From Candidatus Undivivens industriae (GTDB lineage: Bacteria; Omnitrophota; Gorgyraeia; Gygaellales; Profunditerraquicolaceae): a stretch of DNA of 64,000 bases. Both the position numbers and the translations under genes were made by a program. The notes under the pieces are model-generated. The model was not told where the DNA came from, ran no database searches, and saw only the letters and a list, made by a program, of their open reading frames with translations. Below are positions 25,559-61,571 of this stretch, in pieces. The DNA lies in contig JAAYZR010000002.1 of assembly GCA_012514745.1 (NCBI GenBank), positions 104,962 through 168,961 of the forward strand, written 5' to 3'. Numbering within the stretch: the stretch's first letter is position 1; every line of letters begins with the position of its first letter.

Positions 25559-27240
25559 TTCCTTGTCCGTTCTTTTCCGCATTCTTTGAATATCGTTTCT
25601 ATCTGGTCGTAATCCAGCTCTTCTTTGGCGATCAGCTCCCCGGCGAAGCGGTCAAGCAGGGCGGACTCTTTCTTTAACAGATCCTCAACTTCCTGCAGGC
25701 ACTGGGAAAGTATGCTTTGCACGTCGTCGTCCAGCCTTTCCTTGGTCTTTTCCGAAATAAAACTCATCTGCGGCCACGCGGAAGAAGAGGAAAAGTTTTT
25801 GCTCAATTCCTTGAAATTGCCCTTCATTCCGGAAGAACCCATGCCCCAGCACCAGACCATATTATAGGCCCAGAAAGCCGCCTGAAGCATATCTTCTCCC
25901 ACCCCCGAAGTGGTCGTGCGGAATTTCAGCATCTCCGCGGCGTAAGAACCCAGCGCCACTTTTATATTGGCCAGGTAATATTCTTTGTTATGTATGTGCA
26001 TTTCCTCCTTCGAACGGTGATAGACGTAGCCGAGGAAGCCGACGGTGCGCGGTATGATGGTGGCCTTGAATACGTCGTCGGTGGGGTGGAGCAGGTATGC
26101 GGTAATGGCATGCCCGGCTTCATGATAGGCGACTTGTTCTTTCTCCGCCGGGCTGAGCTCCAGGGATTTTCTCAGGCCCATGTCTATTCTTTCCATGGCT
26201 TCGTTTATCTCAGCCATGCCTATGCTGTCCTTTTGTTTGCGGATGGCGATTATCCCGGCCTCCCGCACGATGTTGTTTATGTCGGCGGGGCTTTTGTAAA
26301 CCGCCTTGCGCGCCAGCTGTCCTATGCTTATGTCGCTTCCGCAGCGCACCTTTTTAAGATAGAATTCGAAAAGCTGTTCTCTGTCTTTGAGCCCGGGCAA
26401 TCCTATGTATATCTTTCTGTCGAAACGTCCGGCGCGCATCAGCGCCTGGTCGAGGTCTTTTTCATCCACATTGGTGGCCCCGATCACTACAAGGTTGTTT
26501 TCTTTCTTGCGCAGTCCGTCCAGTTCCGTGAGCAGTTGGTTGACCGCGGCGTTCGCGCTCATCTGTCCGCCGAAGCCGGCATCGTCTCTCCTGGGCCTGG
26601 CTACCGAATCTATTTCGTCGATAAATATTATGCATCCGCCGTGCAATTCTGCCAGGGCGCGGGCCTCTTTGAACAGCGAACGGATTTTTGCCGCCCCCAG
26701 GCCGACGATGATGCCTTCCAGCTCGCTGCCTACCACGGAAAGGAACGGCATCTGCACTTCCGTGGCTATTGCCTTGGCCAGATAGGTTTTTCCGCATCCC
26801 GGCGCCCCGGAAAGCAGTATCCCCTTCACGATCTGTCCTCCCACGCGCTGCAGTTTAGTGCGGTCTTTCAATAACTGCACCACTTCCCAGGCTTCCCGTT
26901 TTACTTCGTCCATGCCGATGACTTCGTCCCATTTCACGTTCACTTCCACGCTTTTTATCTTTTTCTGCCCGAGTTTCGTCATCCCTCCGGCAAAAAAGAA
27001 CCAGTAGTGAAATACCGTATAGATCGAGGCGAAGACGAAAGCGGTGACGACGGCTATGAATATCTGCAGCGGGATCATGGAAAGCTGCATTTGTTTATAG
27101 AACGATTCCAGCCCTGCCATCGCTTTCATTCCGACTATCAAGGCGAACACGGTCAGGGTGAGCACAGTTACTGCCAGCAGGACCAGCAGCAGCTTTATCC
27201 AGTTTAGCTTCACATAAACGGAGACTTTTTTCAGGTTCAT
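25555..27240 (-). CDS. divergent FtsH-like AAA+ zinc metalloprotease (no periplasmic domain)
   Basis: Walker A GAPGCGKT, Walker B IIFIDEID, M41 zinc site HEAGHA. The two N-terminal TM helices are separated by only about 17 residues. Confidence 0.75.
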   Translation of the reverse strand: MNLKKVSVYVKLNWIKLLLVLLAVTVLTLTVFALIVGMKAMAGLESFYKQMQLSMIPLQIFIAVVTAFVFASIYTVFHYWFFFAGGMTKLGQKKIKSVEVNVKWDEVIGMDEVKREAWEVVQLLKDRTKLQRVGGQIVKGILLSGAPGCGKTYLAKAIATEVQMPFLSVVGSELEGIIVGLGAAKIRSLFKEARALAELHGGCIIFIDEIDSVARPRRDDAGFGGQMSANAAVNQLLTELDGLRKKENNLVVIGATNVDEKDLDQALMRAGRFDRKIYIGLPGLKDREQLFEFYLKKVRCGSDISIGQLARKAVYKSPADINNIVREAGIIAIRKQKDSIGMAEINEAMERIDMGLRKSLELSPAEKEQVAYHEAGHAITAYLLHPTDDVFKATIIPRTVGFLGYVYHRSKEEMHIHNKEYYLANIKVALGSYAAEMLKFRTTTSGVGEDMLQAAFWAYNMVWCWGMGSSGMKGNFKELSKNFSSSSAWPQMSFISEKTKERLDDDVQSILSQCLQEVEDLLKKESALLDRFAGELIAKEELDYDQIETIFKECGKERTRK

Positions 27241-27331
27241 GGTTATCCTCCAGGATTATTTTATGGACAAATACCTCTTACAAATAACATATTTAGATAC
27301 TAAAGTCAAACTATTTCAGTAAGATTTGTGC

Positions 27332-27366
27332 TTGACAAAAAAATCCTCACGAGTTATACTATGTTT
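27332..27366 (+). promoter_or_regulatory. near-consensus sigma70 promoter TTGACA-17-TATACT
   Basis: TTGACA at 27332-27337, 17-nt spacer, then TATACT. Confidence 0.55.
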
Positions 27367-27442
27367 ACAAAGAGATAATAAAACTCTTTTCTAAGCCGGC
27401 TAATCTCGCCTTTTTAAAAGCGGGGATAGCCACGGACTCAAG

Positions 27443-27476
27443 CCGGAAGGAAAGTGATTCTTCCGGTTTTTATTTT
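27443..27476 (+). terminator. intrinsic terminator-like hairpin (CCGGAAG..CTTCCGG plus T-tract) inside the leader between the promoter and PilZ gene 1
   Basis: 7-bp GC-rich stem followed by TTTTTATTTT. Confidence 0.5.
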
Positions 27477-27534
27477 GGGAAAGAGGCCTTCTCCAGGGGG
27501 ACGGAAACGTGTTGTATCTCTCCACGCAGGATAT

Positions 27535-27861
27535 ATGGTAAACCAGGACGAAAGAAGATTTTTTGTCAGGATTCCGGTCAGTTTTCCATTGAAATTCTCT
27601 TTGACCGGTTCCTCCTTGCAGTGTATAGGGACCGTCAGCGACGTGAGCATCCGCGGGCTGGGGATATTTACAGAGGCTTCGTTGTCGCGGGGCGCTTCTC
27701 TGGATTGCTGGCTTCTTCTTTCCGACAAAAACCGGCCTTTCTACACGAAAGGCGAAGTGATTTGGACTATACAGGAAGGGGAGAAAACCCTTCGCGCCGG
27801 TATCAGCCTTTCCAATCCGGTCACAACAGGCGTGGCGCACGTTCTTAGACAAAACAGTTAA
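27535..27861 (+). CDS. single-domain PilZ protein (c-di-GMP receptor family)
   Basis: RxxxR (RRFFVRIP) and D-x-S-x-x-G (DVSIRGLG) motifs. Start trimmed to ATG 27535. Confidence 0.65.
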   Translation: MVNQDERRFFVRIPVSFPLKFSLTGSSLQCIGTVSDVSIRGLGIFTEASLSRGASLDCWLLLSDKNRPFYTKGEVIWTIQEGEKTLRAGISLSNPVTTGVAHVLRQNS

Positions 27862-27866
27862 TCCAG

Positions 27867-27913
27867 CCGCAGAAACCCCCGGGCTTGAAAGCCGGGGATG
27901 GGTGCGGTTTGAG
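27867..27913. repeat. palindromic element related to the CAAACCGCAG family (CCGCAGAAA...CCCGGGCTTGAAAGCCGGGG...TGCGGTTTGAG)
   Basis: Outer CCGCA/TGCGG and inner CCCGGGCTT/AAGCCGGGG stems. The 3' end is the reverse complement of the family's 5' box. Confidence 0.5.
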
Positions 27914-27928
27914 TAAATTCGTTTTACG

Positions 27929-27958
27929 TTGACAGTTCCAGTCCCGGTAAGCTATAAT
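27929..27958 (+). promoter_or_regulatory. consensus sigma70 promoter TTGACA-18-TATAAT upstream of PilZ gene 2
   Basis: TTGACA at 27929-27934, TATAAT at 27953-27958. Confidence 0.55.
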
Positions 27959-28089
27959 CTATCGGGCCGGAATAAAACCCCGGTATAATAGTTTAGATTT
28001 CAGGCCGCGCTTCCATGGGGGAGTCCGGGCCTTACCGGCCTTTATTTAGGGGATTAAAGGCGGATCTGTGACGGGGAGATCCGGGATAA

Positions 28090-28434
28090 ATGGAATATAT
28101 AGAACAGCCAGACGGGAGCCCGGAAGACCAGAGATTGTTCGAGCGTATTCAGGGTCAATTCCCCGTAAAGTACACCGACCTGTATTCGCATATCTCTGGA
28201 GAAGCGGTTTCAAGCGACATCAGCGCTTACGGCCTCGGCATGATCTCCGGAACTGAACTGCAGTCTTCGGCGGATCTCGAGATATGGGTGAACGTTCCCG
28301 ACCAGGGCCAGCCGCTTTACGCCAGGGGCAGGGTAGTTTGGTGCAGGCCGGAAGGCGTGAAGAGCTATCGCATGGGTATCCGTCTGGAGAATGCCGAACT
28401 AATGAGGTTTTCCAGGGTTATGCGGCTGCATTGA
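28090..28434 (+). CDS. single-domain PilZ protein
   Basis: RxxxR (RLFERIQ) and DISAYGLG motifs. Confidence 0.65.
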   Translation: MEYIEQPDGSPEDQRLFERIQGQFPVKYTDLYSHISGEAVSSDISAYGLGMISGTELQSSADLEIWVNVPDQGQPLYARGRVVWCRPEGVKSYRMGIRLENAELMRFSRVMRLH

Positions 28435-28591
28435 TATACCCGGCGGCGTACGCGGTCCCGTCCCGATATAAAAATCTTGACCATATAATAAACATGTGTT
28501 AGAGTTAAACACATCTTATTTTATCCGCACTACAACCAACTGTCGGTAAATCCAGTTACAGCACAAGATTTCCGGCTCGAGAGGAGGCTCA

Positions 28592-46900: not shown

Positions 46901-47680
46901 ATGAAAGCGGAGATCGAAGGCTGGATACGGGAACGCATTAAAAGCGCGGGGGCTAAAGGGGCGCTGGTAGGTTTAAGCGGGGGAATAGACTCTTCCGTGG
47001 CTGCCGCCCTGTTATGTTCCTCCCTCGGCAGAAAACGGGTTTTGGCTTTGATACTGCCCGCGCACAGTTCGCGTCAGGACGCGGAGGACGCGGAGTTGAT
47101 AGTTTCCAGATTCCGCCTGCGGTCGTTGACGGTGGATATCTCCAAGATATACGACCTTTTGCTGAAAAAAATGCTTCTTCCTCCGGGGTTAAACGCCGCG
47201 AAGCAGCGCGAGAAGACCGCCGGAGCCAATCTGAAATCGAGGCTCAGGATGTCCGTCTTTTATTATTACGCGAACCGTCTGAATTATCTGGTGTGCGGGA
47301 CCGGCAACCGTTCCGAGATAATGACGGGTTATTTCACCAAATACGGGGACGGCGCCGCCGATATCCTTCCTCTCGGCGGGCTTCTGAAGCGTCAGGTGAG
47401 ATCGCTGGCGGAGGAACTGGGGGTGCCACGGCGTATAATAGATAAGCCCCCCAGCGCCGGGCTCTGGCCGGGCCAGACGGATGAGGCGGAAATGGGAGTG
47501 ACTTACGGAGAGATCGACGCAGTCCTCTCGGGTACCGCCGGAAGGAATAAAACGTTTTGCGGCGGGAAGACGGCATCGCGTATTCATAAAATGCGGTCGC
47601 TGTCCGAACATAAAAGAATGCCGGCCGCGGTTTTTATCCCTTCCGGGGGCGGCAAGCCGAACGCCGGGGAGCTTCATTAG
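46901..47680 (+). CDS. nadE: NH3-dependent NAD+ synthetase
   Basis: PP-loop GLSGGIDSS; single-domain form of about 260 aa. Confidence 0.8.
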   Translation: MKAEIEGWIRERIKSAGAKGALVGLSGGIDSSVAAALLCSSLGRKRVLALILPAHSSRQDAEDAELIVSRFRLRSLTVDISKIYDLLLKKMLLPPGLNAAKQREKTAGANLKSRLRMSVFYYYANRLNYLVCGTGNRSEIMTGYFTKYGDGAADILPLGGLLKRQVRSLAEELGVPRRIIDKPPSAGLWPGQTDEAEMGVTYGEIDAVLSGTAGRNKTFCGGKTASRIHKMRSLSEHKRMPAAVFIPSGGGKPNAGELH

Positions 47681-47738
47681 AGGTATAAGCCGGGGCAGAT
47701 TGCTGCCGGCGGACAACCATTACAAAGAAGAGGTGCGC

Positions 47739-48224
47739 ATGGACGAGATACTTGAAATACTCGAAAAAGACGGCAGGGCTACGGTGGAAGATATCTCCAG
47801 GATGCTGCGCAGAAAACCGGGAGCCGTGCGCAAGGCCATAAAAAAATACGAAAAAGACGGGATAATCCTGAGTTACAAGGCCGTGATCAACAAGGAAATG
47901 GTCAAGTATAAGAATTCCGGGGTCCGCGCCTTGATAGAGGTCAACATCACCCCTCAGAAAGACCTGGGATTCGACAAGATAGCCGAGAGGATCTATTCTT
48001 TCCCGGAGGTCGGCAGCTGTTATCTCATTTCCGGCACCTACGACCTCCTGCTGATAATCGAGGGAAGGGACCTGCACACGGTCTCCAAGTTTGTCTCGGA
48101 AAAACTCGCGCCGATGGAAAATATCCGAGGCGTGGTAACTCATTTTCTGCTGAAGAAATATAAAGAGGACGGGATGGTGTTGAAGCAGGTGCAGGAGAAC
48201 GAGCGTATCCCCATATCGTATTAA
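47739..48224 (+). CDS. Lrp/AsnC-family transcriptional regulator
   Basis: N-terminal HTH plus RAM domain; 161 aa from ATG 47739. Confidence 0.8.
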   Translation: MDEILEILEKDGRATVEDISRMLRRKPGAVRKAIKKYEKDGIILSYKAVINKEMVKYKNSGVRALIEVNITPQKDLGFDKIAERIYSFPEVGSCYLISGTYDLLLIIEGRDLHTVSKFVSEKLAPMENIRGVVTHFLLKKYKEDGMVLKQVQENERIPISY

Positions 48225-48251: not shown

Positions 48252-49430
48252 GTGTCTGTTAAAAACGGCGGAAGCCGGGGATTATCGAAAAAAGTTGAAG
48301 AAATGCAGCCTTCCGGGATCAGGGTCTTTTTCGACCTTGTGCTGGGAATGAAAGACGTTATTTCCCTCGGTGTGGGCGAACCGGATTTCGTCACGCCCTG
48401 GCAGATAAGGGAAGCCGGGATATACTCTCTGGAAAACGGTTCCACTTCCTATACCTCGAATAAAGGGCTGGTTAAACTGCGCATGGGGCTGCAGCATTAT
48501 TTGAAAAAGAGATACGGTTTGTCCTATGCGCATGAAGACCGGATACTCGTCACGGTAGGCGTGAGCCAGGGCGTGGACCTGGCTTTGCGCGCGCTGATCA
48601 ATCCCGGCGACAGGATTATCATCCCGGCGCCGGCATACGTCTGTTACGCCCCTCTTGCCGAACTGGCGGGGGGGAAGGCGGTTTGTATCGATACCTCGCG
48701 CGACGGTTTCAAGCTCACCCCCCGCGCGCTGGAATCCGCTCTGCGCGTCCCGGCCAAGGCGTTACTGTTGAATTACCCCTGTAATCCCACCGGGATTTCC
48801 TATACTGCGCGGGAGCTCAGGGAATTGAACCGGATACTGCTCAAACACGGAGTTATGTGCGTCAGCGACGAAATATACGCGGACCTCACTTACGATTTCG
48901 AACATACTTCATTCGCGTCCCTGCCGGGGGCCAAAGAGAACACGCTTTTGTTGAACGGGTTCTCCAAAAGTTACGCCATGACCGGCTGGCGCGTGGGATA
49001 CGCCTGCGGGCCTGCAAAGATTATCGCGGCAATGACAAAGATACATCAATATATGATGCTTTGCGCTCCGATCATGTCGCAGATGGCGGCCTGCGAGGCT
49101 TTGCTGACCGGACGCGACTCGATGGAGGAAATGAAGCGGGAATACCGCCGCAGGCGTTCTTTCATCGTGGACGGGTTGAACCGTATCGGCCTCGATTGCG
49201 CCCTGCCGCAGGGGGCTTTTTATGCCTTTGCTTCGGTGAAGAAGAGCGGATTGTCATCCATAGAATTCTGCCGGCGGCTGCTCAAAGAAGAGAAGGTCGC
49301 CGTCGTTCCGGGCACCGCTTTCGGGGATAACGGCGAGGGATACGTTCGTATCTCTTACGCCGCGGCGATGGACAAGATAAAAGAAGCGCTGGGCAGGATG
49401 CAGAGGTTCCTTGAAAGAAACAGGAAATGA
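48252..49430 (+). CDS. PLP-dependent aminotransferase, class I (aspartate aminotransferase-like)
   Basis: GTG start with AAGGAG RBS. SKSYAMTGWRVGY PLP-lysine motif. Confidence 0.8.
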   Translation: MSVKNGGSRGLSKKVEEMQPSGIRVFFDLVLGMKDVISLGVGEPDFVTPWQIREAGIYSLENGSTSYTSNKGLVKLRMGLQHYLKKRYGLSYAHEDRILVTVGVSQGVDLALRALINPGDRIIIPAPAYVCYAPLAELAGGKAVCIDTSRDGFKLTPRALESALRVPAKALLLNYPCNPTGISYTARELRELNRILLKHGVMCVSDEIYADLTYDFEHTSFASLPGAKENTLLLNGFSKSYAMTGWRVGYACGPAKIIAAMTKIHQYMMLCAPIMSQMAACEALLTGRDSMEEMKREYRRRRSFIVDGLNRIGLDCALPQGAFYAFASVKKSGLSSIEFCRRLLKEEKVAVVPGTAFGDNGEGYVRISYAAAMDKIKEALGRMQRFLERNRK

Positions 49431-49452
49431 AGCGGACGGGTGGAGCGCGGTT

Positions 49453-50784
49453 ATGGCGAAGATGACCGGAAAAGAAATAATGAAGCTGGTAAAGGATAAA
49501 AACATCGGTTTTATCCGGCTCTGTTTTACCGACGTCCTGGGGTTCCTCAAGGGTTTTGCCATAACGGCGGACGAACTGGAGCGCGTGCTGGAAGAAGGCA
49601 TGGGGTTTGACGGCTCCTCGGTGGAAGGGTTCGCCAGGGTGGAAGAGTCGGATATGGTCGCAAGGCCCGACCCGGACACGTTCTCCGTTACCCCCTGGAG
49701 CGCCCAGGATAGACACCTTACCGCCGGTATGTTCTGTGATATATACGAGCCCGGCGGCAGGCCGTTTGAAGGAGACCCGCGTTACATCCTCAAACGTAAC
49801 CTGGCTGCGGCGAAAGAGATGGGCTATACCTATTACGTCGGACCGGAGCTCGAGTATTTTTATTTCAGCAATTCCTCCGTCCCGCAGCCGCTCGATAACG
49901 GCGGTTATTTCGACCTTGTTCCTTTGGACGTCGCCCAGGACCTGCGCAGGGATACCATCTCGGCGCTGCAATCTATGGGCATCGCCGTCGAATACAGCCA
50001 TCATGAAGTGGCGCCCAGCCAGCACGAGATCGACCTGCGTTACGGGGATGCGTTGCGTATGGCAGATAACGTAATGACTTACCGTCTGGTGGTGAAAGAG
50101 ATCGCGCGCAAGCATGGCGTATACGCAACTTTTATGCCCAAGCCGATCTACGGGATCAACGGCTCCGGCATGCACGTCCACCAGTCGCTGTTTAAGGGCG
50201 GCAAGAACGCCTTTTTTGATCCGTCCGACAAATACCATCTTTCGCCCGCCGGCAAAGCGTATACCGCCGGGTTGCTAAAGCATTCCAGGGAGATCACTTC
50301 CATAACCAGCCAGTGGGTCAATTCATACAAAAGGTTGATTCCGGGATATGAGGCACCCGTGTATATATGCTGGGCGCAGATGAACCGCTCCGCGCTTATA
50401 CGCGTGCCTATGTATAAACCCGGGAAAGAGAAATCCACGCGCATAGAATACCGTTCGCCGGATCCGGCCTGCAATCCATACCTGGCTTTCTCGGTTATGC
50501 TCGCCTGCGGCCTTGAAGGAATGAAACGCGGATATAAATTGGCTCCGCCGGCAAACGACAATATTTACCGTATGGATGAGGAGGAAAGGAACAAACAGGG
50601 TATAAGTTCTCTTCCCGACGACCTGCTGGAGGCCATACAGGTCACCGAGAAGAGCAAAATAGTCAAGGAAGCCTTGGGGGCCACTCTCTTCGAGTTCTTC
50701 ATCCGCAACAAGAAAATGGAGTGGGATGAATATAAGGCTCAAGTCACCCGGTATGAGATAAACAAGTATCTGCCGATACTTTAA
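49453..50784 (+). CDS. glnA: glutamine synthetase type I
   Basis: GS-I length of 443 aa; catalytic-region motifs including FGQHLH-like and NPYL. Confidence 0.85.
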   Translation: MAKMTGKEIMKLVKDKNIGFIRLCFTDVLGFLKGFAITADELERVLEEGMGFDGSSVEGFARVEESDMVARPDPDTFSVTPWSAQDRHLTAGMFCDIYEPGGRPFEGDPRYILKRNLAAAKEMGYTYYVGPELEYFYFSNSSVPQPLDNGGYFDLVPLDVAQDLRRDTISALQSMGIAVEYSHHEVAPSQHEIDLRYGDALRMADNVMTYRLVVKEIARKHGVYATFMPKPIYGINGSGMHVHQSLFKGGKNAFFDPSDKYHLSPAGKAYTAGLLKHSREITSITSQWVNSYKRLIPGYEAPVYICWAQMNRSALIRVPMYKPGKEKSTRIEYRSPDPACNPYLAFSVMLACGLEGMKRGYKLAPPANDNIYRMDEEERNKQGISSLPDDLLEAIQVTEKSKIVKEALGATLFEFFIRNKKMEWDEYKAQVTRYEINKYLPIL

Positions 50785-50835: not shown

Positions 50836-51576
50836 ATGACAGAGAAAAAAAGAGAACGTTCGTTCGCAGGCAAGAAAGATAACTACCAGATTTATCTGAA
50901 ACAGATAAACGCTCTGGCCCGGGTGGCCAGATTGATAAGTTCAGGGATGTATCTCGATGAGTTGCTTAAACTTATAGTTCACGTCACGGCGGAGGTTATG
51001 CAGTCCAAGATATGTTCTTTGATGCTGCTGGACCCGGAGACCAAGGAACTGGTGATCAAATCTACCCAGTCGGTCTCTGAGAGATACAATAATAAGCCTA
51101 ACATCAAGCTTGGCGAGGGCATCGCCGGAATGGTGGCCAAAGACAACAAACTGCTCTGCTCCGGGGACGTCAGGAAGGACAGGAGGTATGTCAACCGTGA
51201 GATAGCCAGGAGCGAGGCAATAGTGTCTCTGGCCAGCGTGCCCCTGGCCATTAAAGGCAAAGTGATAGGGGTGCTTAATTGTTATACTTCCGAGGAGCAT
51301 GAGTTCAGCCCCGCCGAATTGGACATTCTTACTACCGTCGCCGCGCAGGCCGCCGCCGCCATCGAGAACGCCGAACTGGACCTGCGGGCGCGCAGTGCCG
51401 AAGAAGCCCTGCAGACCCGCAAGCTCATAGAGCGCGCCAAAGAGATATTATCGCAGGACGCCAATATGCCGCCTTCTGAAGCGTTCAGGTTGATCCAAAA
51501 ACAGAGTATGGACAAACGCAAGACTATGAAGGAGATAGCCGAGGCGATAATACTCGCCAAGGATATCCGTTCCTAA
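50836..51576 (+). CDS. GAF-ANTAR one-component RNA-binding antiterminator-type regulator
   Basis: N-terminal GAF domain (residues about 40-190) and a C-terminal ANTAR motif LQTRKLIERAKEILSQDANMPPSEAFRLIQKQSMDKRKTMKEIAEAII. Confidence 0.75.
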   Translation: MTEKKRERSFAGKKDNYQIYLKQINALARVARLISSGMYLDELLKLIVHVTAEVMQSKICSLMLLDPETKELVIKSTQSVSERYNNKPNIKLGEGIAGMVAKDNKLLCSGDVRKDRRYVNREIARSEAIVSLASVPLAIKGKVIGVLNCYTSEEHEFSPAELDILTTVAAQAAAAIENAELDLRARSAEEALQTRKLIERAKEILSQDANMPPSEAFRLIQKQSMDKRKTMKEIAEAIILAKDIRS

Positions 51577-51697: not shown

Positions 51698-52963
<1,266 letters not shown>

Positions 52964-53427: not shown

Positions 53428-53850
53428 ATGTTAGTTATCATTAGATTAACGCTTAACGTGATTTCCCTTGTCCTGGCGGCGCAGCTCTGCCCGGGCATAA
53501 GCATTACGAACTGGCAGGCCGCCCTTGCGGCCGCGCTGGTACTCGGTCTTTTCAACCTCTTTCTTAAGCCGGCGCTGGTTTTTCTTACCCTCCCGATTAA
53601 CCTGCTCAGTTTTGGAGTGTTCATTTTCTTTATAAACGGACTGCTTTTTTACGCCGCCTCGCGAGTGGTAACCGGTTTCCATGTGGACGGTTACGGCAGC
53701 GCCCTTCTGGGGGCTTTCTTTTACAGCGCGATAAACCTGCTGCTTGGGATTCTTTTCAACAGCAGGGGCGGGAATAACGGCGGAAGCCCGCGCAAAGGGC
53801 CCGGCCGCAGGAGCGACGTGATAGATGTGGAAGCTAAAATAGAATCTTGA
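53428..53850 (+). CDS. small 4-TM membrane protein (DUF360 / holin-IV-like)
   Basis: Four hydrophobic helices and a Gly/Arg-rich tail. Confidence 0.45.
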   Translation: MLVIIRLTLNVISLVLAAQLCPGISITNWQAALAAALVLGLFNLFLKPALVFLTLPINLLSFGVFIFFINGLLFYAASRVVTGFHVDGYGSALLGAFFYSAINLLLGILFNSRGGNNGGSPRKGPGRRSDVIDVEAKIES

Positions 53851-53875
53851 CAGAGAACGGCGAGAATGCTATAAT
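53847..53875 (+). promoter_or_regulatory. perfect consensus sigma70 promoter TTGACA-17-TATAAT upstream of the Gln-dependent nadE
   Basis: TTGACA at 53847-53852, TATAAT at 53870-53875. It is followed by two leader hairpins (53884-53899 and 53904-53940) ending in a T-run. Confidence 0.55.
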
Positions 53876-54029
53876 TTAAACACATTACGAAGGCGTAATA
53901 GACAAAGGCGTTTGCTGAATCACCGCAGATGCCTTTTTTGTTTTCCCGGATAACGTGGTCCTGAAAGCCGCAACACAGCTTTCAGGATTTTTTTTACCCG
54001 CTGAGAAGCGGTTTAAGGATGGGTTCATC

Positions 54030-55622
54030 GTGGAAAAGATCGCTTTGGCACAGATCAACTGCACGGTAGGGGGTGTGCGGGACAATGCGCAGAAGATCAT
54101 CGAATTCAGCCGGCTGGCGGCCGCCGAAGGCAATAAAATGGCCGTTTTCCCGGAGTTGGCCGTCACCGGTTATCCTCCGGAAGACTTGCTGCTAAAACCC
54201 TCTTTTATCGCCGACAACCTGGAGCAATCCAGGAGAATAGTCGCTTCCGCCGGCGATATGATTGTCATTTTCGGGTTCGTTGATACCGACGGAGAAAGGT
54301 TATATAACGCCGCCGCCGCGGCCGTCCGCGGTAAACTCGCCGGCGTGTACCGTAAAGTCCTGCTGCCTAACTACGGCGTGTTCGACGAAAAACGTTATTT
54401 CGCTCCGGGTAAAGAGGCCCCGGTTTTTAGGATCGACGGTCTATCTATGGGGATCAGTGTCTGCGAGGATATTTGGCACGCGTCCGGCCCGGTATACGAA
54501 CAGGCCAGGACCGGGGCGGAGGTCCTGGTCAATATCAGCGCTTCTCCCTATCAAATCGGCAAGATCGCAGAACGCGGGGATACCCTTTGCCGCTGCGCCG
54601 CGGAGTGCGGAGTGCCGATAGTTTATGTCAATCTTGTGGGAGGGCAGGATGATCTGGTGTTCGACGGAGGGAGCATGTTCATATCGTCTGCCGGCGGGGT
54701 GCTATCGCGCGCCGCTGTCTTCAAGGAAGAGCTCTTTACCCTGGAGCGGGCTGTCTGCCGCCGGCCGGAATATTCTTTGGAGCAGGAAGAAGAGGTTTAT
54801 TCCGCTCTGACTCTCGGTTTGAAAGATTATTTTCGCAAGAACGGTTTTAAAAAGGCGGTGCTGGGCCTTAGCGGCGGGATAGATTCGGCACTCACCGCTG
54901 CACTGGCCGCCGACGCGCTCGGCAGCGAAAACGTGACCGGCGTCTTCCTACCGGCCAGGTATACTTCCAAACAGTCGCATGACGACGCCCTAAAGCTTGC
55001 CCGCGGGCTGGGCATCGGGTTCAAGCGTATATCCATCGAGCCGATTTTTCGGCTTTACCTGTTGAGCCTGGAGGAACAGTTCAGCGGACTGCCGAGGGAT
55101 TGCACGGAAGAAAATCTGCAAGCGCGTATACGAGGCGCGCTGCTTATGGCTCTGTCCAATAAATTCGGGTGGCTGGTGCTCGCCACGGGAAACAAGTCGG
55201 AGATGAGTGTGGGGTATTCCACCATCTACGGTGATCTCGCCGGAGGGTTCGCGGTTTTAAAGGACGTGCCGAAGACTCTTATTTACAGGCTGGTCGCGTA
55301 CCGCAACCGCCGTTCCCCGGTCATACCGGAAAGCGTTATATCACGTGAACCCACTGCTGAACTTAGCCCGGGGCAGAAGGACAGCGATACCCTTCCGCCT
55401 TATGATGTGCTGGACCCCATATTGAAGCTGTATATTGAAGAAGATGCTTCGGCGCAGGATATCATCGCCGCCGGCTTCCAGGAAAAAGACGTGCGCAGGG
55501 TGGTTTCGCTGGTAGACGGCAGCGAATATAAGCGTCGGCAGTCCCCTCCCGGGATAAAGATCACATCCAGGGCGTTCGGTAAGGACCGCAGGATGCCGAT
55601 CACCAACGGACAAAAACCATGA
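54030..55622 (+). CDS. nadE: glutamine-dependent NAD+ synthetase (nitrilase domain plus NAD synthetase domain)
   Basis: N-terminal CN-hydrolase domain (KIALAQIN...) and a C-terminal PP-loop GLSGGIDSA. Start set at GTG 54030 with AAGGATGGG RBS. Confidence 0.75.
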   Translation: MEKIALAQINCTVGGVRDNAQKIIEFSRLAAAEGNKMAVFPELAVTGYPPEDLLLKPSFIADNLEQSRRIVASAGDMIVIFGFVDTDGERLYNAAAAAVRGKLAGVYRKVLLPNYGVFDEKRYFAPGKEAPVFRIDGLSMGISVCEDIWHASGPVYEQARTGAEVLVNISASPYQIGKIAERGDTLCRCAAECGVPIVYVNLVGGQDDLVFDGGSMFISSAGGVLSRAAVFKEELFTLERAVCRRPEYSLEQEEEVYSALTLGLKDYFRKNGFKKAVLGLSGGIDSALTAALAADALGSENVTGVFLPARYTSKQSHDDALKLARGLGIGFKRISIEPIFRLYLLSLEEQFSGLPRDCTEENLQARIRGALLMALSNKFGWLVLATGNKSEMSVGYSTIYGDLAGGFAVLKDVPKTLIYRLVAYRNRRSPVIPESVISREPTAELSPGQKDSDTLPPYDVLDPILKLYIEEDASAQDIIAAGFQEKDVRRVVSLVDGSEYKRRQSPPGIKITSRAFGKDRRMPITNGQKP

Positions 55623-56131
55623 GTTACCCCGACCTGCTTAAGAGGCTGTCCCCGCGGCTGAAGGGAATAACGTATAAACTTAACGGGAAATTCACCTTTT
55701 TCAACGAAGAAGATCTTTTCCAGGAGGCGGCGGTCAGGCTTTGGCAGGAATTCGAGCTCGGGCGGCTTGCCGGCAAGACAGACAGTTACATACTTCAGGG
55801 ATGTTATTTTCATCTCAAGAATTACATAAGAAAAAAATACGACAAAAAGAATACACTGAGCCTGGAGGCGTTGCTGACCGAAGAGCCCGGGGCCGAGGAC
55901 AGGCTGTCGTGCCTTTCTTCGCCTGAGCCGTTCGAATCGCTGCACGCCGGAGTCGTGGAGAAGGAGATGCGTTCTGCGTGCCGCGATAAAAGAGAACACG
56001 AAATATTCCATTTGAGCCTGCGGGGTTTCACGGTTAGGGAGATCGCGGCCGAACTCGGCGTCTCGCATGTGCTGGTGGTAAGACTGCGAAAAAGGATGAG
56101 GGCAAAACTTTTATCTCTGGCCGCGGAGTGA
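55619..56131 (+). CDS. sigma-70-family (ECF-like) RNA polymerase sigma factor
   Basis: Region-2-like segment EDLFQEAAVRLWQ and a region-4 HTH LRGFTVREIAAELGVSHVLVVRL. Confidence 0.6.
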   Translation: MSYPDLLKRLSPRLKGITYKLNGKFTFFNEEDLFQEAAVRLWQEFELGRLAGKTDSYILQGCYFHLKNYIRKKYDKKNTLSLEALLTEEPGAEDRLSCLSSPEPFESLHAGVVEKEMRSACRDKREHEIFHLSLRGFTVREIAAELGVSHVLVVRLRKRMRAKLLSLAAE

Positions 56132-56270
56132 AGAGGTGTTACCAGAAACCGGATTTCTTTACTTGTAATAGTGAAGCTCTCCGGGTTCTAACCCGGTTTC
56201 ACCTTAGCTTATGCACAAGGATGTGCGTTAAATAGAAACAACGGCCTGTTATAAAGGCTTGAGCTTAAAT

Positions 56271-56328
56271 AAGACAGAGGCGTCTTGCTTCCGGGATCCA
56301 ACGATCGGAGGCAAGACGTTTTTTATTG
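56271..56328 (+). terminator. leader attenuator in front of glnB-amt-glnK: small AGAGGC-loop hairpin overlapping a 13-bp-stem intrinsic terminator plus T6
   Basis: AAGAC-AGAGGC-GTCTT at 56271-56286. The terminator is CGTCTTGCTTCCG..CGGAGGCAAGACG followed by TTTTTT, spanning 56281-56324. Confidence 0.55.
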
Positions 56329-56358
56329 TATCCGCGCGGTCTATCCGGGAGGTGCGGG

Positions 56359-56697
56359 ATGAAAAAAATAGAAGCGGTGATAAGATCGGAAAAAGTCGGA
56401 GACGTGCGCAAGGCGCTGGACAAGACGTGCTTCTCCGGATTGATGCTTACCCAGGTGGACGGGCACGGTAAGCAGAAGGGTACGATGCAGGAATGGCGCG
56501 GAGACATTTATCGTGTGGGGATACTCCCCAAGACCAAGGTGGAGGTCGTGGTGGAAGATAAGGATCTTGATACCGTTGTCCGCGTAATCATGGACGCCGC
56601 CAGGACGGGAGAAATCGGAGACGGTAAGATATTCGTTTATCCTGTCGAAGAGGTTTACCGCATCAGGACGGCGGAAAAGGGAAGCGCGGCATTGTAA
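56359..56697 (+). CDS. glnB: nitrogen regulatory protein P-II
   Basis: 112 aa (MKKIEAVIR..., T-loop region, GDGKIFV). GGGAGG RBS. Confidence 0.85.
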   Translation: MKKIEAVIRSEKVGDVRKALDKTCFSGLMLTQVDGHGKQKGTMQEWRGDIYRVGILPKTKVEVVVEDKDLDTVVRVIMDAARTGEIGDGKIFVYPVEEVYRIRTAEKGSAAL

Positions 56698-56814
56698 TCC
56701 ATTTAATCAAACCGCCCCCTCGCCCAGAAATCCCCGGGCGCTTGTCCAAGGCATTGCGACGAGAGGATTGTCCAACGGGCAGACCGGGGAGTTTCACTAT
56801 TGAAAGGAGACGAG

Positions 56815-58041
56815 ATGAATTCCGGTGATACGGCATGGGTTTTGATTTCTTCGGCTCTTGTAATGTTGATGACGCCCGGCCTGGCCTTCTTTTACGGGGG
56901 TATGGTTAGGAAGAAGAATGTCCTTAGCATCCTGATGCAGTGTTTTATAGTCCTTTGTCTTTTGAGCGTTCAATGGGTGCTTTACGGTTACAGTATTTCC
57001 TTCGCACCCGGGGACGGCTTCTGGGGCGGGTTCAAATGGGCGGGGCTTGCCGGCGTCGGGCTGGAGCCTTACGCGGATTATTCGGCCACTATCCCGCACC
57101 AGGCTTTTATGATTTTCCAGGCTATGTTTGCCATAATTACTCCCGCTTTGATACTGGGAGCGTTCGCGGAAAGGATGAAGTTTTCCGCATTTTTGGCTTT
57201 CATATTGCTCTGGGTGACTTTCGTATACGGGCCGGTCTGCCATTGGGTATGGGGAATGGGCGGCTGGTTGAGAAAACTCGGAGCCCTTGATTTTGCAGGG
57301 GGCACAGTTGTGCATATCAACGCCGGTATCGCGGCTTTAGCAACGGCTATTGCTATCGGCAGGCGTAAGAATTTGGAGAAGAACGTTCCGACCCCGCATA
57401 ATATGCCGTTTGTAGTGTTGGGTACCGCTTTATTATGGTTCGGCTGGTTCGGGTTCAACGCCGGCAGCGCCCTGGCGGCCAACGGCCTCGCGGTAAACGC
57501 GTTCGTGGTCACCAACACCGCTGCCGCTGCCGCGGGTTTGAGCTGGGCATTTATAGAATGGATTAAGAACGGTAAACCTACCGTTCTCGGCGTGGCCAGC
57601 GGAGCGGTGGCGGGACTGGTCGCTATCACCCCGGCGGCGGGTTTCGTAAGCGTGATCCCTGCCATCTTCATCGGTCTGTTGGTAAGCCTGTTCTGTTTTG
57701 TTTTTGTGAGCGAGGTCAAAAGGAAGTTCGCTTATGACGATTCTCTCGATGCTTTCGGCGTGCATTGCGTGGGTGGAGTCTGGGGGGCCCTTGCGACCGG
57801 ATTGTTCGCTTCTAAAGCGGTCAATCCTGCCGGGGCGGACGGCCTGTTTTTCGGCAATCCGCAGCAATTCCTGGTGCAGATCGCGGCAGTCGCGGTAACG
57901 CTGGTCTATTCTTTCGCGGTCAGCATGGTTATCTACAAGATAGTAGATTCCGTGATGGGAGTACGCGTGGGAGAGAAAGAAGAATCCATTGGCCTTGATC
58001 TTACCCAGCACCACGAAAGAGCGTATACAATATTGGAATAA
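56815..58041 (+). CDS. amt: ammonium transporter
   Basis: Amt signature DTAWVLISSALVMLMTPGLAFFYGG. AAAGGAGA RBS 5 nt upstream of ATG 56815. Confidence 0.85.
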   Translation: MNSGDTAWVLISSALVMLMTPGLAFFYGGMVRKKNVLSILMQCFIVLCLLSVQWVLYGYSISFAPGDGFWGGFKWAGLAGVGLEPYADYSATIPHQAFMIFQAMFAIITPALILGAFAERMKFSAFLAFILLWVTFVYGPVCHWVWGMGGWLRKLGALDFAGGTVVHINAGIAALATAIAIGRRKNLEKNVPTPHNMPFVVLGTALLWFGWFGFNAGSALAANGLAVNAFVVTNTAAAAAGLSWAFIEWIKNGKPTVLGVASGAVAGLVAITPAAGFVSVIPAIFIGLLVSLFCFVFVSEVKRKFAYDDSLDAFGVHCVGGVWGALATGLFASKAVNPAGADGLFFGNPQQFLVQIAAVAVTLVYSFAVSMVIYKIVDSVMGVRVGEKEESIGLDLTQHHERAYTILE

Positions 58042-58068
58042 TTCCTTGTAAGGATAAGGGGGATATAA

Positions 58069-58410
58069 ATGAAACTGGTAATAGCCATAATCCAGCCGGA
58101 CAAGCTGGAGGAAATCAAAGAGGAGCTTTACAGGTCGGAGATCAATCTTATTACCGTCAGCGAAGTGCTCGGCCACGGCCGCCAGAAAGGCGTAACGGAG
58201 TTCTACCGCGGGGCAAAGGAGACCGGGAATCTGTTGAGAAAGATCCGTATTGAAATAGCCGTGAACGACACTTTCCTGGAACCGGCAATAAAAGCGATAG
58301 TGGCCGGGGCCAAGACCGGCGAGACCGGAGACGGTAAGATATTCGTGCTGGATATGAAGGAGTGCGTGCGTATACGCACGGAAGAACGCGGTTCCACGGC
58401 GATAGGGTAG
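58069..58410 (+). CDS. glnK: nitrogen regulatory protein P-II (GlnK-type, amt-linked)
   Basis: 113 aa; MKLVIAIIQP..., GDGKIFV. Confidence 0.85.
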   Translation: MKLVIAIIQPDKLEEIKEELYRSEINLITVSEVLGHGRQKGVTEFYRGAKETGNLLRKIRIEIAVNDTFLEPAIKAIVAGAKTGETGDGKIFVLDMKECVRIRTEERGSTAIG

Positions 58411-58558
58411 GGATATAGAAAAAGAGGGATTGAGCGCCGCCGGGGACGGCAGGAAGAAAAGAGAGGGAGAAAGAGGCAAGTGAAGAAAAACAGGGGTCAG
58501 GAGAAAGGATTTTTTCTCCCTCCTCCCTTTTTAACGCGCGACGCCGTTTACTATATAC

Positions 58559-58587
58559 TTGACAGCGGGGGTGCTGGTATATATAAT
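58559..58587 (+). promoter_or_regulatory. perfect consensus sigma70 promoter TTGACA-17-TATAAT upstream of the glnN leader
   Basis: TTGACA at 58559-58564, TATAAT at 58582-58587. The glnN ATG lies about 275 nt downstream. Confidence 0.55.
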
Positions 58588-58715
58588 ATATAAAACAGCA
58601 GGCGATATCCGGTCCGGCGGCAGGAAGAATAATAAGAAAAAGCTGTTACCAAACCCGGGCAATCTTTACTTGTATAATTAAGGCACATCGTTGTGCCGTA
58701 AAATTAAGCGAAATA

Positions 58716-58772
58716 TGAACAGAGGCGTTCAGGATAATCGCCGCAGGCGGTTTGAATGGACGCCTCTTTTTA
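58716..58772 (+). terminator. leader attenuator in front of glnN: AGAGGC-loop hairpin overlapping a terminator (GAGGCGT..ACGCCTC plus TTTTTA)
   Basis: TGAAC-AGAGGC-GTTCA at 58716-58731. The terminator stem arms are at 58723-58729 and 58760-58766, followed by a T-run. Confidence 0.5.
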
Positions 58773-58867
58773 CTTGAGTCCAATGGAAACCCTGCTCGCG
58801 GCCTAATTTCTATTACCGAAAAAATAGAGTAGCCTCGGGTTCCACTCAGCAACGTAAGGAGGAAGTA

Positions 58868-61063
58868 ATGAGTATAAGGCAGAAAGTTTTATTTAAGATC
58901 AATAACGTGCCTTTGGAGAAAGCCGGTTCTCTTGAGAAGGTATCTTCTTATTTCGGTGAAAACACTTTCAGCCTGGATGCGATGAAGAAGTATATCTCCG
59001 GAGCCACATTCGAAGCCTTCAAAACCTGGATGAACGAGGGGAAGACCATCAGCAAAGAGCAGGCGGACGAGATTGCCAACGCCATGAAAGATTGGGCCAT
59101 TTCCAAGGGCGCCACATATTATACGCATTGGTTCCAGCCTATGACCGGACTTACCGCGGAGAAGCACGACAGTTTTATTTCTTTTACCGGACCCGGGAAG
59201 GTGAGCGAGACATTCTCCGGAAGCAAACTCATACAGGGAGAGCCGGACGCTTCGAGTTTCCCTTCAGGAGGCATACGCGCCACCTTCGAGGCGCGCGGTT
59301 ACACCGCCTGGGACCCATCCAGCCCGGCCTTTATCATTGAGAGCGCTCTAGGCAAGACCCTTTGCATCCCGACCATATTTATATCTTATCACGGGGAAGC
59401 CCTGGACAAGAAACTCCCGCTTTTGCGCTCCGATGAAGCTTTAAGCAAAGCGGCGGTCGGACTGCTGAAACTGTTCGGGCACAAGGAAACGCAGAAAGTA
59501 CTTTCCACCTGCGGCCCGGAGCAGGAGTATTTTCTGATAGACAAGAATTATTATAATCTCCGGCAGGACCTTATAATGGCCGGCAGGACATTGATCGGGG
59601 CCCCGTCTCCGAAGGGCCAGCAGCTGGAGGATCAGTATTTCGGGACCATCAAGGAACGCGTGGTCAATTTTATGTTTGAGGTGGCGCAGGAGGCGTATAA
59701 ACTTGGGATACCGGTAGTGACGCGCCACAACGAGGTCGCTCCGCATCAATATGAATTCGCCCCCATCTTCGAAGAATCGAACCTCGCCGCCGACCACAAC
59801 CAGCTGCTTATGGAGCTGATGAAAAAGGTGGCGTTGCGGCACGATATGATCTGCCTTCTGCACGAGAAACCCTTTGCCGGGATAAACGGCAGCGGTAAGC
59901 ATCTCAACTGGTCGCTGGCTGACGACAAGGGAAACAACCTGCTTAATCCCGGTCAGACACCCGAGGATAATCTGCAGTTCCTGGCCGTGCTGGCCGCTGT
60001 GTTGAGGGCGGTTTATCTGCATTCCGACTTGCTGCGAGCGTCGGTAGCCATGGCCGGCAACGAGCACAGGCTGGGCGCCAATGAGGCGCCTCCGGCGATC
60101 ATCAGCGTCTTTCTGGGCGAGCAGTTGACCTCCATACTCGATATGATAGAGAAAGGCGTGAAATCAAAAGTCTCCAAAAGCGACATCATCGATCTGGGGA
60201 TCGGACGTTTGCCGAAATTCAACAAGGATAACACGGACAGGAACCGTACGTCGCCTTTTGCCTTTACCGGAGCCAAGTTTGAATTCCGCGCCGTGGGATC
60301 TTCGCAAAACATCTCCACGCCCATCGCGGTCATAAACACCATAATAGCCGAAAGCCTCGATTACGTGTCCGGAAAGATCTCCGCGGCGTCGGGCGGAGGC
60401 AAGGATTTCAATACCGCCGTTCTACAGGTGATCTCGGAGATAGTGAAAGAGACGAAGAGTATCCGTTTCGAGGGCAACAATTACGCCCCGGAGTGGGTCA
60501 AGGAGGCCAAGAAGCGCGGCCTTCCCAACGTGTCCAGCACTTATGAAGCGTTGGAGGCGTTGACTAAAGAGAAGAACATCCGCCTGTTCGAGAAATACGG
60601 CGTCTTCTCGGAAGAAGAACTGGTGGCGCGTTATCATATCTGGATCCATACGTATAATCTGACCCTTGAGATAGAGGCGAACACCCTTAAAGAAATGGTG
60701 AACGCCTCGGTGGTGCCGGCAGGTTATAAGTATGAGAAACTGCTCGCGCGCACGCTGCACGAGTTGGTAAGCCTTGTCAAGACGGCCGCTTTGAAACTTG
60801 ACCCGGCAGCCCTGAAGGACAAGAAAGCCCACCTTGCCGACATCGTCAGCAAAATATACTACGTCAGGCGCAATACCCTGGAGATGGATAAACTACTGGG
60901 GAAAGCGGCCAAAGTCGGCGATGCAGAGCGCGCCGAGCTTTATTTCAGGGAACTCAAACCATTGATGGAGCACATCCGCAGGCATGTGGATGAACTGGAG
61001 TGCGTGGTTTCAGACGACTCCTGGGACCTGCCTAAATACCGGGAGATGCTGTTCATAAAATAA
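58868..61063 (+). CDS. glnN: glutamine synthetase type III
   Basis: 730 aa, the typical GS-III length; conserved central catalytic region. AAGGAGG RBS. Confidence 0.85.
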   Translation: MSIRQKVLFKINNVPLEKAGSLEKVSSYFGENTFSLDAMKKYISGATFEAFKTWMNEGKTISKEQADEIANAMKDWAISKGATYYTHWFQPMTGLTAEKHDSFISFTGPGKVSETFSGSKLIQGEPDASSFPSGGIRATFEARGYTAWDPSSPAFIIESALGKTLCIPTIFISYHGEALDKKLPLLRSDEALSKAAVGLLKLFGHKETQKVLSTCGPEQEYFLIDKNYYNLRQDLIMAGRTLIGAPSPKGQQLEDQYFGTIKERVVNFMFEVAQEAYKLGIPVVTRHNEVAPHQYEFAPIFEESNLAADHNQLLMELMKKVALRHDMICLLHEKPFAGINGSGKHLNWSLADDKGNNLLNPGQTPEDNLQFLAVLAAVLRAVYLHSDLLRASVAMAGNEHRLGANEAPPAIISVFLGEQLTSILDMIEKGVKSKVSKSDIIDLGIGRLPKFNKDNTDRNRTSPFAFTGAKFEFRAVGSSQNISTPIAVINTIIAESLDYVSGKISAASGGGKDFNTAVLQVISEIVKETKSIRFEGNNYAPEWVKEAKKRGLPNVSSTYEALEALTKEKNIRLFEKYGVFSEEELVARYHIWIHTYNLTLEIEANTLKEMVNASVVPAGYKYEKLLARTLHELVSLVKTAALKLDPAALKDKKAHLADIVSKIYYVRRNTLEMDKLLGKAAKVGDAERAELYFRELKPLMEHIRRHVDELECVVSDDSWDLPKYREMLFIK

Positions 61064-61108: not shown

Positions 61109-61184
61109 GTCTCTCCCGGAACCGGACTTGCTCCCCGGATTTTTAAAATACAAATGCCAAACTATTAGGCATTGCAAAACGCCG

Positions 61185-61571
61185 ATGGTCGAAATGATTG
61201 CATTATTTATCTCCGGTAATGAAGAGAACGTGCTTGCTGCGCTCTCCGACGCTTTGGGCCGGACCGGCAATACCGCCGTCAGCGTGGTCAAACGGGAGGT
61301 AATATCCGGAATCCTGCAAAAAGGCGATATGACCGCTCTGGTTTCCCTGGAAGAGAAAATAAGGAAATTATCCAGGCAGGTTTGCATGGAGAACAAGGGC
61401 AGGGCTTACAAGATCTTTCTCGATACGGTGGAGAAACCGTTGTTCGAAGAGGTGCTCATCCGCACCGACGGCAACCAGATGAAAGCGGCGAGGATATTGG
61501 GGATAAACAGGAACACGATGCGTTCAAGGATAAAGCGGCTCGGACTTACTCCCGGAGTCTATAGGCAATGA
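61185..61571 (+). CDS. small protein with a C-terminal Fis-type HTH (NtrC-C-terminal-like DNA-binding domain)
   Basis: C-terminus NQMKAARILGINRNTMRSRIKRLGL. The alternative TTG start is at 61128. Its stop overlaps the gltB ATG (ATGA). Confidence 0.45.
   Translation: MVEMIALFISGNEENVLAALSDALGRTGNTAVSVVKREVISGILQKGDMTALVSLEEKIRKLSRQVCMENKGRAYKIFLDTVEKPLFEEVLIRTDGNQMKAARILGINRNTMRSRIKRLGLTPGVYRQ

Follow-up and report, generated by a model that had tools for sequence, protein, structure and literature searches.

The leaders of glnN, of a P-II (glnB-like) gene and of a nadE-sigma factor operon in an uncultured Omnitrophota bacterium, represented by a MAG, are very probably transcription attenuators of the ANTAR type that would be relieved by a GAF-ANTAR protein encoded in the same nitrogen cluster. 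The structures, their mutual exclusion, their conservation and an ANTAR gene in synteny with the targets can be read directly from the sequence and the predicted folds. They make nitrogen control in a candidate phylum without cultured members concrete and open to testing, with an RNA element, a GAF-ANTAR candidate and target operons. The analysis started from one stretch of 64 kb, called the window in the following, and its genes of interest were assigned by Pfam and NCBIfam:

46901-47680, nadE (NH3 type)
47700-48224, lrp
48252-49430, aminotransferase (aspC)
49411-50784, glnA (GS type I)
50836-51576, + strand, GAF-ANTAR protein, candidate trans-acting antiterminator (Pfam ANTAR, GAF_2)
51698-52963, enolase
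53955-55622, glutamine-dependent nadE
55619-56131, + strand, ECF-type sigma factor gene, 170 aa (NCBIfam TIGR02937 sigma70-ECF)
56359-56697, P-II
56815-58041, amt
58069-58410, P-II (glnK)
58868-61063, + strand, glnN, glutamine synthetase type III, the regulated gene (Pfam GSIII_N 2.5e-75, Gln-synt_C, Gln-synt_C-ter)
61185-61571, Fis-like HTH protein
61568 onward, gltB

Some further features of the window lie beside these genes. A long purine-rich/pyrimidine-rich hairpin GGAGAAAGG...CCTCCCTTTTT with noise-level Rfam matches follows glnK at 58446-58544 and probably serves as the terminator of amt-glnK. An imperfect palindrome TGCCAAACTATTAGGCA (61155-61171), possibly an operator bound by the Fis-like protein, lies a short distance 5' of the Fis-like HTH gene; relatives carry TGCATAAA-N-TTTAGGCA at the same site, located after a dual-hairpin attenuator that the window is without here. 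Finally, only short ORFs are present in a region of 1.3 kb (27240-28590), where several sites resemble strong promoters, among them TTGACA...TATACT near 27332 and TTGACA...TATAAT near 27930.

The leader of glnN consists of the following elements, for which the covariance model R1, built on 37 leaders (alignment A1), was used together with minimum-energy folding:

58559-58587, + strand, sigma-70-type promoter match TTGACA-17-TATAAT, 5' of the leader (12/12 to consensus)
58645-58674, + strand, bipartite box GTTACCA-N14-TTACTTGTA (exact match)
58682-58697, + strand, P1 hairpin GGCAC-ATCGTT-GTGCC, hexaloop 58687-58692 with G4 at 58690 (R1)
58716-58731, + strand, P2 hairpin (putative antiterminator) TGAAC-AGAGGC-GTTCA, hexaloop 58721-58726 with G4 at 58724 (R1 and fold)
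58721-58772, + strand, intrinsic terminator (minimum-energy fold)

R1 scores this leader with 52.8 bits, and the linker between P1 and P2 has 18 nt. The terminator is formed by an 11-bp stem (58721-58731 with 58757-58767) around an inner hairpin (58736-58752) and is followed by a T-tract at 58767-58771. In the predicted minimum-energy fold of 58679-58775, P1 and the terminator are present (-39.7 kcal/mol, z = -5.3), and P2 alone is predicted to be weak (-3.2 kcal/mol). As the 5' arm of the terminator is identical to the loop and the 3' arm of P2 (58721-58731), P2 and the terminator are mutually exclusive. An earlier description of this leader made from the letters alone, the sequence-only reading, had already named the perfect promoter, the hairpin at 58716-58731 and its competition with the terminator, all of which we find as described, the competition even recurring in 74 distinct related leaders. 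Its terminator GAGGCGT...ACGCCTC-TTTTTA is also present and ends at 58772, but GAGGCGT starts at 58722 and not at 58723. P1 had been drawn as the inverted repeat GCACAtcgtTGTGC at 58683-58696 with 5 bp and a tetraloop. The repeat is there, but the tetraloop form is possible only in the glnN sequence of the window, where loop bases 1 and 6 pair by chance; in relatives a stem of 4-5 bp closes a hexaloop. The element TCTTTACTTGTATAAT at 58663-58678 is the 3' half of the bipartite box and thus belongs to a conserved bipartite promoter-like DNA box outside the RNA switch. This box nature was absent from the sequence-only reading, as were the ANTAR dual-hexaloop identity and the third leader copy before nadE, both described below.

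The P-II leader is built in the same way:

56138-56167, + strand, second copy of the bipartite box, starting 6 nt past the stop codon of the ECF sigma gene
56213-56226, + strand, P1 GCAC-AAGGAT-GTGC (R1 with 36.6 bits over 56212-56286)
56271-56286, + strand, P2 AAGAC-AGAGGC-GTCTT (R1 and fold)
56276-56324, + strand, terminator with its 5' arm beginning in the P2 loop and a T-run at 56319-56324 (minimum-energy fold)

It also folds as the glnN leader does (-41.9 kcal/mol, z = -5.0 for the minimum-energy fold), and its P1-P2 linker of 44 nt carries a small hairpin of its own at 56243-56259. The motif order is common to both leaders, as had been claimed: the box GTTACCA-N14-TTACTTGTA, P1, P2 with ACAGAGGCGT, and a T-tract terminator that takes in P2 with its 5' arm. 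All four loops follow the pattern A..G.. (ATCGTT and AGAGGC in the glnN leader, AAGGAT and AGAGGC in the P-II leader). The decamer ACAGAGGCGT, correctly noticed before as common to both, occurs exactly twice in the window when both strands are searched (56274 and 58719), and GTTACC-N15-TTACTTGTA was likewise found exactly twice with 0 mismatches (56138 and 58645), with about 1e-4 matches expected by chance for its 15 specified bases. The two operons had been called unlinked. They are indeed separate transcription units, but they are adjacent, lying 2.4 kb apart in one nitrogen cluster.

A third, more divergent leader precedes the glutamine-dependent nadE and the sigma gene:

53847-53944, + strand, whole leader (fold, weak R1 match of 13.3 bits, homology)
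53847-53875, promoter TTGACA-17-TATAAT
53884-53899, P1 ATTAC-GAAGGC-GTAAT, the loop beginning with G
53900-53913, P2 AGAC-AAAGGC-GTTT
53904-53944, terminator with a T-run at its end

This leader is homologous to the leaders of the sigma genes in four related loci (L019, L021, L024 and L025), with G4 being invariant in both loops, and the same design was also found in many metagenome contigs. In the nadE-sigma leaders the linker between P1 and P2 is 0-5 nt long. In relatives the sigma gene, or nadE together with the sigma gene, is preceded by this design as well, often plus a second tandem attenuator, a hairpin GGAC-TAAGGC-GTCC with its own terminator (L019 480-540, L025 460-510 and many metagenome contigs), which would place two ANTAR-type gates in series.

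For the comparison with relatives we used the 80 closest glnN loci in public genomes, nearly all from Candidatus Omnitrophota MAGs, with a GlnN identity of 76-97%. The conserved units across these loci are a hairpin GCAC-N6-GTGC, a hairpin GAAC-N6-GTTC and then a terminator GAACGYC-T(n). A heuristic detector for P2 and terminator was strict and scored 47 of 83 leaders, and the covariance model was used instead. Searching 709 kb of related Omnitrophota DNA with R1 (E < 0.01) gave 76 matches, 74 of them distinct and 37 of these outside the seed. Looked for in related genomes, the shared motifs are therefore present, with 74 copies of the leader and 80 copies of the box. P1 loops have exactly six bases in 66 of the 74 copies and P2 loops in all 74. 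G4 is found in 66/66 six-base P1 loops (29/29 non-seed) and in 73/74 P2 loops (36/37 non-seed), A occupies position 1 in 59% of P1 and 85% of P2 loops, nearly all others having G there, and C6 of the P2 loop is kept in 71/74 copies. A stem of at least 6 bp with a T-run starts inside P2 in 74/74 copies, compared to 12% of random positions. The linker between P1 and P2 varies from 8 to 55 nt and its sequence is unconserved.

The inverted repeats GCAC-N6-GTGC and GAAC-N6-GTTC might also be read as DNA operators of a dimeric factor, for example of the Fis-like or Lrp-like proteins of the cluster, with the terminators being ordinary and unregulated. Both repeats are palindromic and of typical operator size, and several DNA-binding proteins are encoded in the cluster. 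The stems, however, tolerate G-U (pairs 2-17, 3-16, 4-15 and 66-77), which a DNA palindrome would carry as mismatches, and the loop conservation is asymmetric, G4 and C6 being kept on a single strand. P1 stem pairs vary between GC, GU and AU, the outer pairs of P2 covary between AU, UA and CG, and some compensatory change is seen as well, with a covariation score of 0.179, compared to 0.133 for shuffles and at most 0.066 when the partners are slid. Moreover, all 76 matches have the orientation of the downstream gene, which together with the tolerated G-U and compensatory changes places the signal in RNA and not in DNA, and P2 is within the terminator arm in every one of the 74 distinct copies. 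We thus regard operators as a very improbable explanation. Even less credit can be given to a recent duplication of the leader without functional constraint, in which promoters alone would set expression. The identical decamer and box of the two window leaders would fit such an event, but the same architecture occurs in genomes with GlnN only 76-85% identical and in at least 120 metagenome contigs, and the linkers and stems have diverged whereas the loops are fixed, so that this explanation is contradicted by the comparative data.

The genes that follow the leaders are almost all nitrogen-assimilation genes, both in the genome loci and among the metagenome matches listed. In the genome loci the first gene is glnN in 29 cases, P-II in 4, amt in 3, gltB in 3 and glnA in 2, to which about 15 Fis-like HTH genes before gltB and about 4 porin-like genes are added. 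An independent scan for box and P1 identified at least 120 metagenome contigs, and 121 of the 131 matches listed have a P2-like motif within 90 nt. Downstream of the listed matches we found amt (27), glnA (15), glnN (14), P-II (3), many signal-peptide barrel proteins preceding amt, and Fis-like genes. In L012 (1310-2140), L025 (1290-2100) and many metagenome loci, a porin-like signal-peptide protein of 250-290 aa ending in F is encoded by the gene that comes first after the sigma gene and its box-leader, upstream of amt; the window carries a P-II gene at this place. Many distant glnN leaders keep P2 only, followed by a promoter-like element TGnTAnAAT. Compact examples without P1 are present in L003 (3821-3900), L011 (3864-3950) and L012 (3865-3950), where the box is followed after 5-11 nt by a P2 hexaloop inside a 13-bp terminator (AACAGAGGCGTTC / GAATGCCTCTGTT). 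The position of this extended -10-like element right after the T-tract suggests a second, unregulated promoter.

ANTAR targets have been described as two hexaloop hairpins with conserved positions 1 (A) and 4 (G) and with P2 overlapping a terminator (PMC3369931, Ramesh 2012), and in the EutV-RNA structure G4 is the sole base-specific contact (PMC8934654). The glnN and P-II leaders show two tandem short stem-loops with six-base loops, A at position 1 and G at position 4, the P1 loop of the nadE leader starting with G. In the folds of the window as well as in 74/74 related copies, P2 shares its 3' part with the 5' arm of the terminator, and the protein encoded at 50836-51576 provides an ANTAR domain in the same genome. 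ANTAR-type leaders have also been reported before P-II, ammonium transporter, glutamine synthase and glutamate synthase genes (PMC3369931, PMC3369936, PMC2995071), and as the targets found here (P-II, amt, glnN, glnA, gltB and nadE) belong to these gene classes they count for the ANTAR reading. The short constrained P1-P2 linker of 5-12 nt known from eut was not found in the glnN and P-II leaders, where the linkers have 18 nt (glnN) and 44 nt (P-II). Natural linkers of EutV targets are 5-12 nt long, and antitermination was lost when they were lengthened to 14 nt or by 20 nt, a constraint shown for EutV only that may not define the whole ANTAR-target family. The long linkers, the frequent G at position 1 and the many distant glnN leaders with P2 alone count against the ANTAR reading.

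Glutamine riboswitches precede nitrogen genes in other phyla, and the link between the ANTAR protein and the leader RNA is drawn from sequence, so that a metabolite riboswitch or another, non-ANTAR RNA-binding protein could be thought to control the same terminator. Neither leader matched an Rfam family at the gathering threshold in a search of the whole window, nor with E up to 10 in 56000-59000, the glutamine riboswitch (glnA RNA) included. In addition, the conserved part consists of two hairpins of 4-5 bp and a variable, unconserved linker of 8-55 nt and thus offers no plausible ligand pocket, and the hexaloop with G4 is a signature specific to ANTAR targets, with the ANTAR gene being syntenic. 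Both variants of this explanation are therefore unlikely in our view, and ANTAR-type attenuation is the reading followed here.

The candidate regulator for such attenuation adjoins glnA in the same nitrogen cluster, 7 kb upstream of the glnN leader. ANTAR candidates were located with Rv1626 and AmiR probe sequences, and the match in the window was then confirmed by Pfam (ANTAR PF03861 with 2.4e-18 for residues 188-239, GAF_2 with 3.2e-21) and by PDB matches to the ANTAR domains of Rv1626, NasR and EutV. Its GAF domain is closest to the GAF domains of PtsP (EI-Ntr), Nlh1 and NifA, which are tied to nitrogen-status sensing. The same nitrogen supercluster contains an orthologue (about 70% identity) in 11 related genome loci, and in several of these it immediately precedes glnN or the sigma gene; 27 reading frames match the protein in the genome loci and the metagenome contigs listed. 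The sequence-only reading had postulated a common trans-acting antiterminator and a regulon. This is supported by the terminator overlap, the 74 leaders, the nitrogen-gene targets and the ANTAR gene in the cluster, and with the GAF-ANTAR gene and its syntenic orthologues the postulated factor has a named candidate. No leader was found by the covariance model before the nadE(NH3)-lrp-aspC-glnA-ANTAR operon, whose intergenic gaps are too short. Other ANTAR proteins or RNA binders could be encoded in the rest of the genome beyond the 64 kb window. The GAF-ANTAR class itself has been described as uncharacterised (PMC3369931).

In the mechanism that we propose, the nascent RNA would by default fold into P1 and the strong intrinsic terminator, so that transcription would stop before the gene. 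When nitrogen becomes limiting, the GAF-ANTAR protein (50836-51576) would bind the hexaloop of P1 and then that of P2, presumably with the flipped-out G at loop position 4 as key contact. Binding would stabilise the weak P2, which would then sequester bases of the terminator 5' arm, and with the terminator blocked RNA polymerase could read into glnN, P-II/amt/glnK or nadE-sigma. We infer both that this protein binds these leader RNAs and that it does so under nitrogen limitation, with its GAF domain presumably sensing nitrogen status through a metabolite, for example 2-oxoglutarate or glutamine.

A further layer of control may lie in the bipartite box, which at 58645-58674 is probably a nitrogen-regulated promoter. 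In relatives its 80 distinct copies show two invariant blocks with a rigid spacing (22 nt from GTTACC to the TA of TTGTA), an A-rich flank upstream, and a distance of 2-30 nt between the end of the box and the start of P1. In the window the consensus sigma-70 promoter of glnN sits 58 nt upstream of the box and also occurs in the nearest relatives (L001, L068 and L071); more distant relatives are without it and have the box alone before the leader. If the box is a real regulated promoter, the glnN leader would have about 190 nt and not 275 nt. Among known sites that were tried, the box fits neither a sigma-54 promoter (GG-N10-GC), the region for the -24 element not being conserved, nor an NtcA (GTA-N8-TAC), TnrA/GlnR (TGTNA-N7-TNACA) or housekeeping sigma-70 site, and it is also unlike the usual ECF consensus GGAAC...CGT.

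Its candidate reader is the sigma factor encoded at 55619-56131. This protein matches TIGR02937 with 52.1 bits (cutoff 42.9) over residues 5-166 and the Pfam families Sigma70_r2, r4_2 and ECF at sub-threshold level only, and as is typical for ECF (group 4) factors it has sigma-70 regions 2 and 4 only and a size within about 170-200 aa. Its gene start overlaps the stop codon of nadE, and the two genes are co-transcribed and translationally coupled. The box lies at most 80 nt past the stop codon of the sigma gene, mostly 0-7 nt, in 50 of 66 homologues among the loci listed, a biased count because the metagenome loci had been chosen for having the box. From this adjacency and the shape of the box we infer that the box might be the promoter that this sigma factor recognises.

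Adjacency and shape also suggest a feed-forward circuit of sigma factor and ANTAR protein around the attenuators, which is the element that looks new. In the sigma operon the hexaloop attenuators lie behind a sigma-70 promoter. We tentatively propose, at slightly less than even odds, a two-layer AND gate in which the GAF-ANTAR protein would gate the operon of the ECF-type sigma factor, the sigma factor would drive GTTACCA-N14-TTACTTGTA before amt, P-II, glnN, glnA, porin and fis-gltB, and the same attenuator would gate each of these again, resulting in a coherent feed-forward loop that is so far undescribed. Literature searches gave no report on ANTAR in Omnitrophota and none on an ECF sigma factor in nitrogen assimilation together with ANTAR. 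If true, the two-layer gate would for the first time assign a defined regulon to a GAF-linked ANTAR protein, and it could also be possible to rebuild this sigma/antiterminator design in a heterologous host.

Compared to the known ANTAR dual-hexaloop leaders (EutV/eut of Enterococcus faecalis, NasR/nasF of Klebsiella and AmiR/ami of Pseudomonas; PMC3369931), the Omnitrophota leaders share the two short hexaloop hairpins with G4 and mostly A1, a P2 that has bases in common with the terminator, (predicted) termination as default and nitrogen-metabolism targets. They differ from eut in their longer and very variable linkers (8-55 versus 5-12 nt) and from the canonical motif in having G at position 1 in 15-38% of copies and a nearly invariant C6 in P2, and their candidate regulator carries a GAF sensor in place of REC, NIT or AmiR_N. 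The distant glnN leaders of L003, L011 and L012, which keep only the P2 hexaloop inside the terminator, resemble the single-hexaloop sites of the revised minimal motif (Walshe et al. 2022, PMC8934654), in contrast to the window leaders, which keep both hairpins; a function of these single-hairpin attenuators is putative. ANTAR leaders have been reported from Actinobacteria, Bacteroidetes, Firmicutes and Proteobacteria (PMC3369936), and as Omnitrophota is not among these phyla, the link between ANTAR antitermination and nitrogen metabolism would be extended to another phylum. The closest parallel to a two-layer control of nitrogen genes, which here is suggested by sequence, is GnfK/GnfR of Geobacter sulfurreducens (Ueki and Lovley 2010, PMC2995071), where an ANTAR regulator relieves premature termination in the nifH, glnK and amtB leaders and a dedicated initiation system is needed as well. 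In Geobacter this initiation layer consists of RpoN and the enhancer-binding GnfM, which turns on the ANTAR system, and the ANTAR protein is a response regulator, whereas in Omnitrophota the initiation layer is apparently an ECF-type sigma factor whose own operon is under an ANTAR-type attenuator, and the ANTAR protein is GAF-linked.
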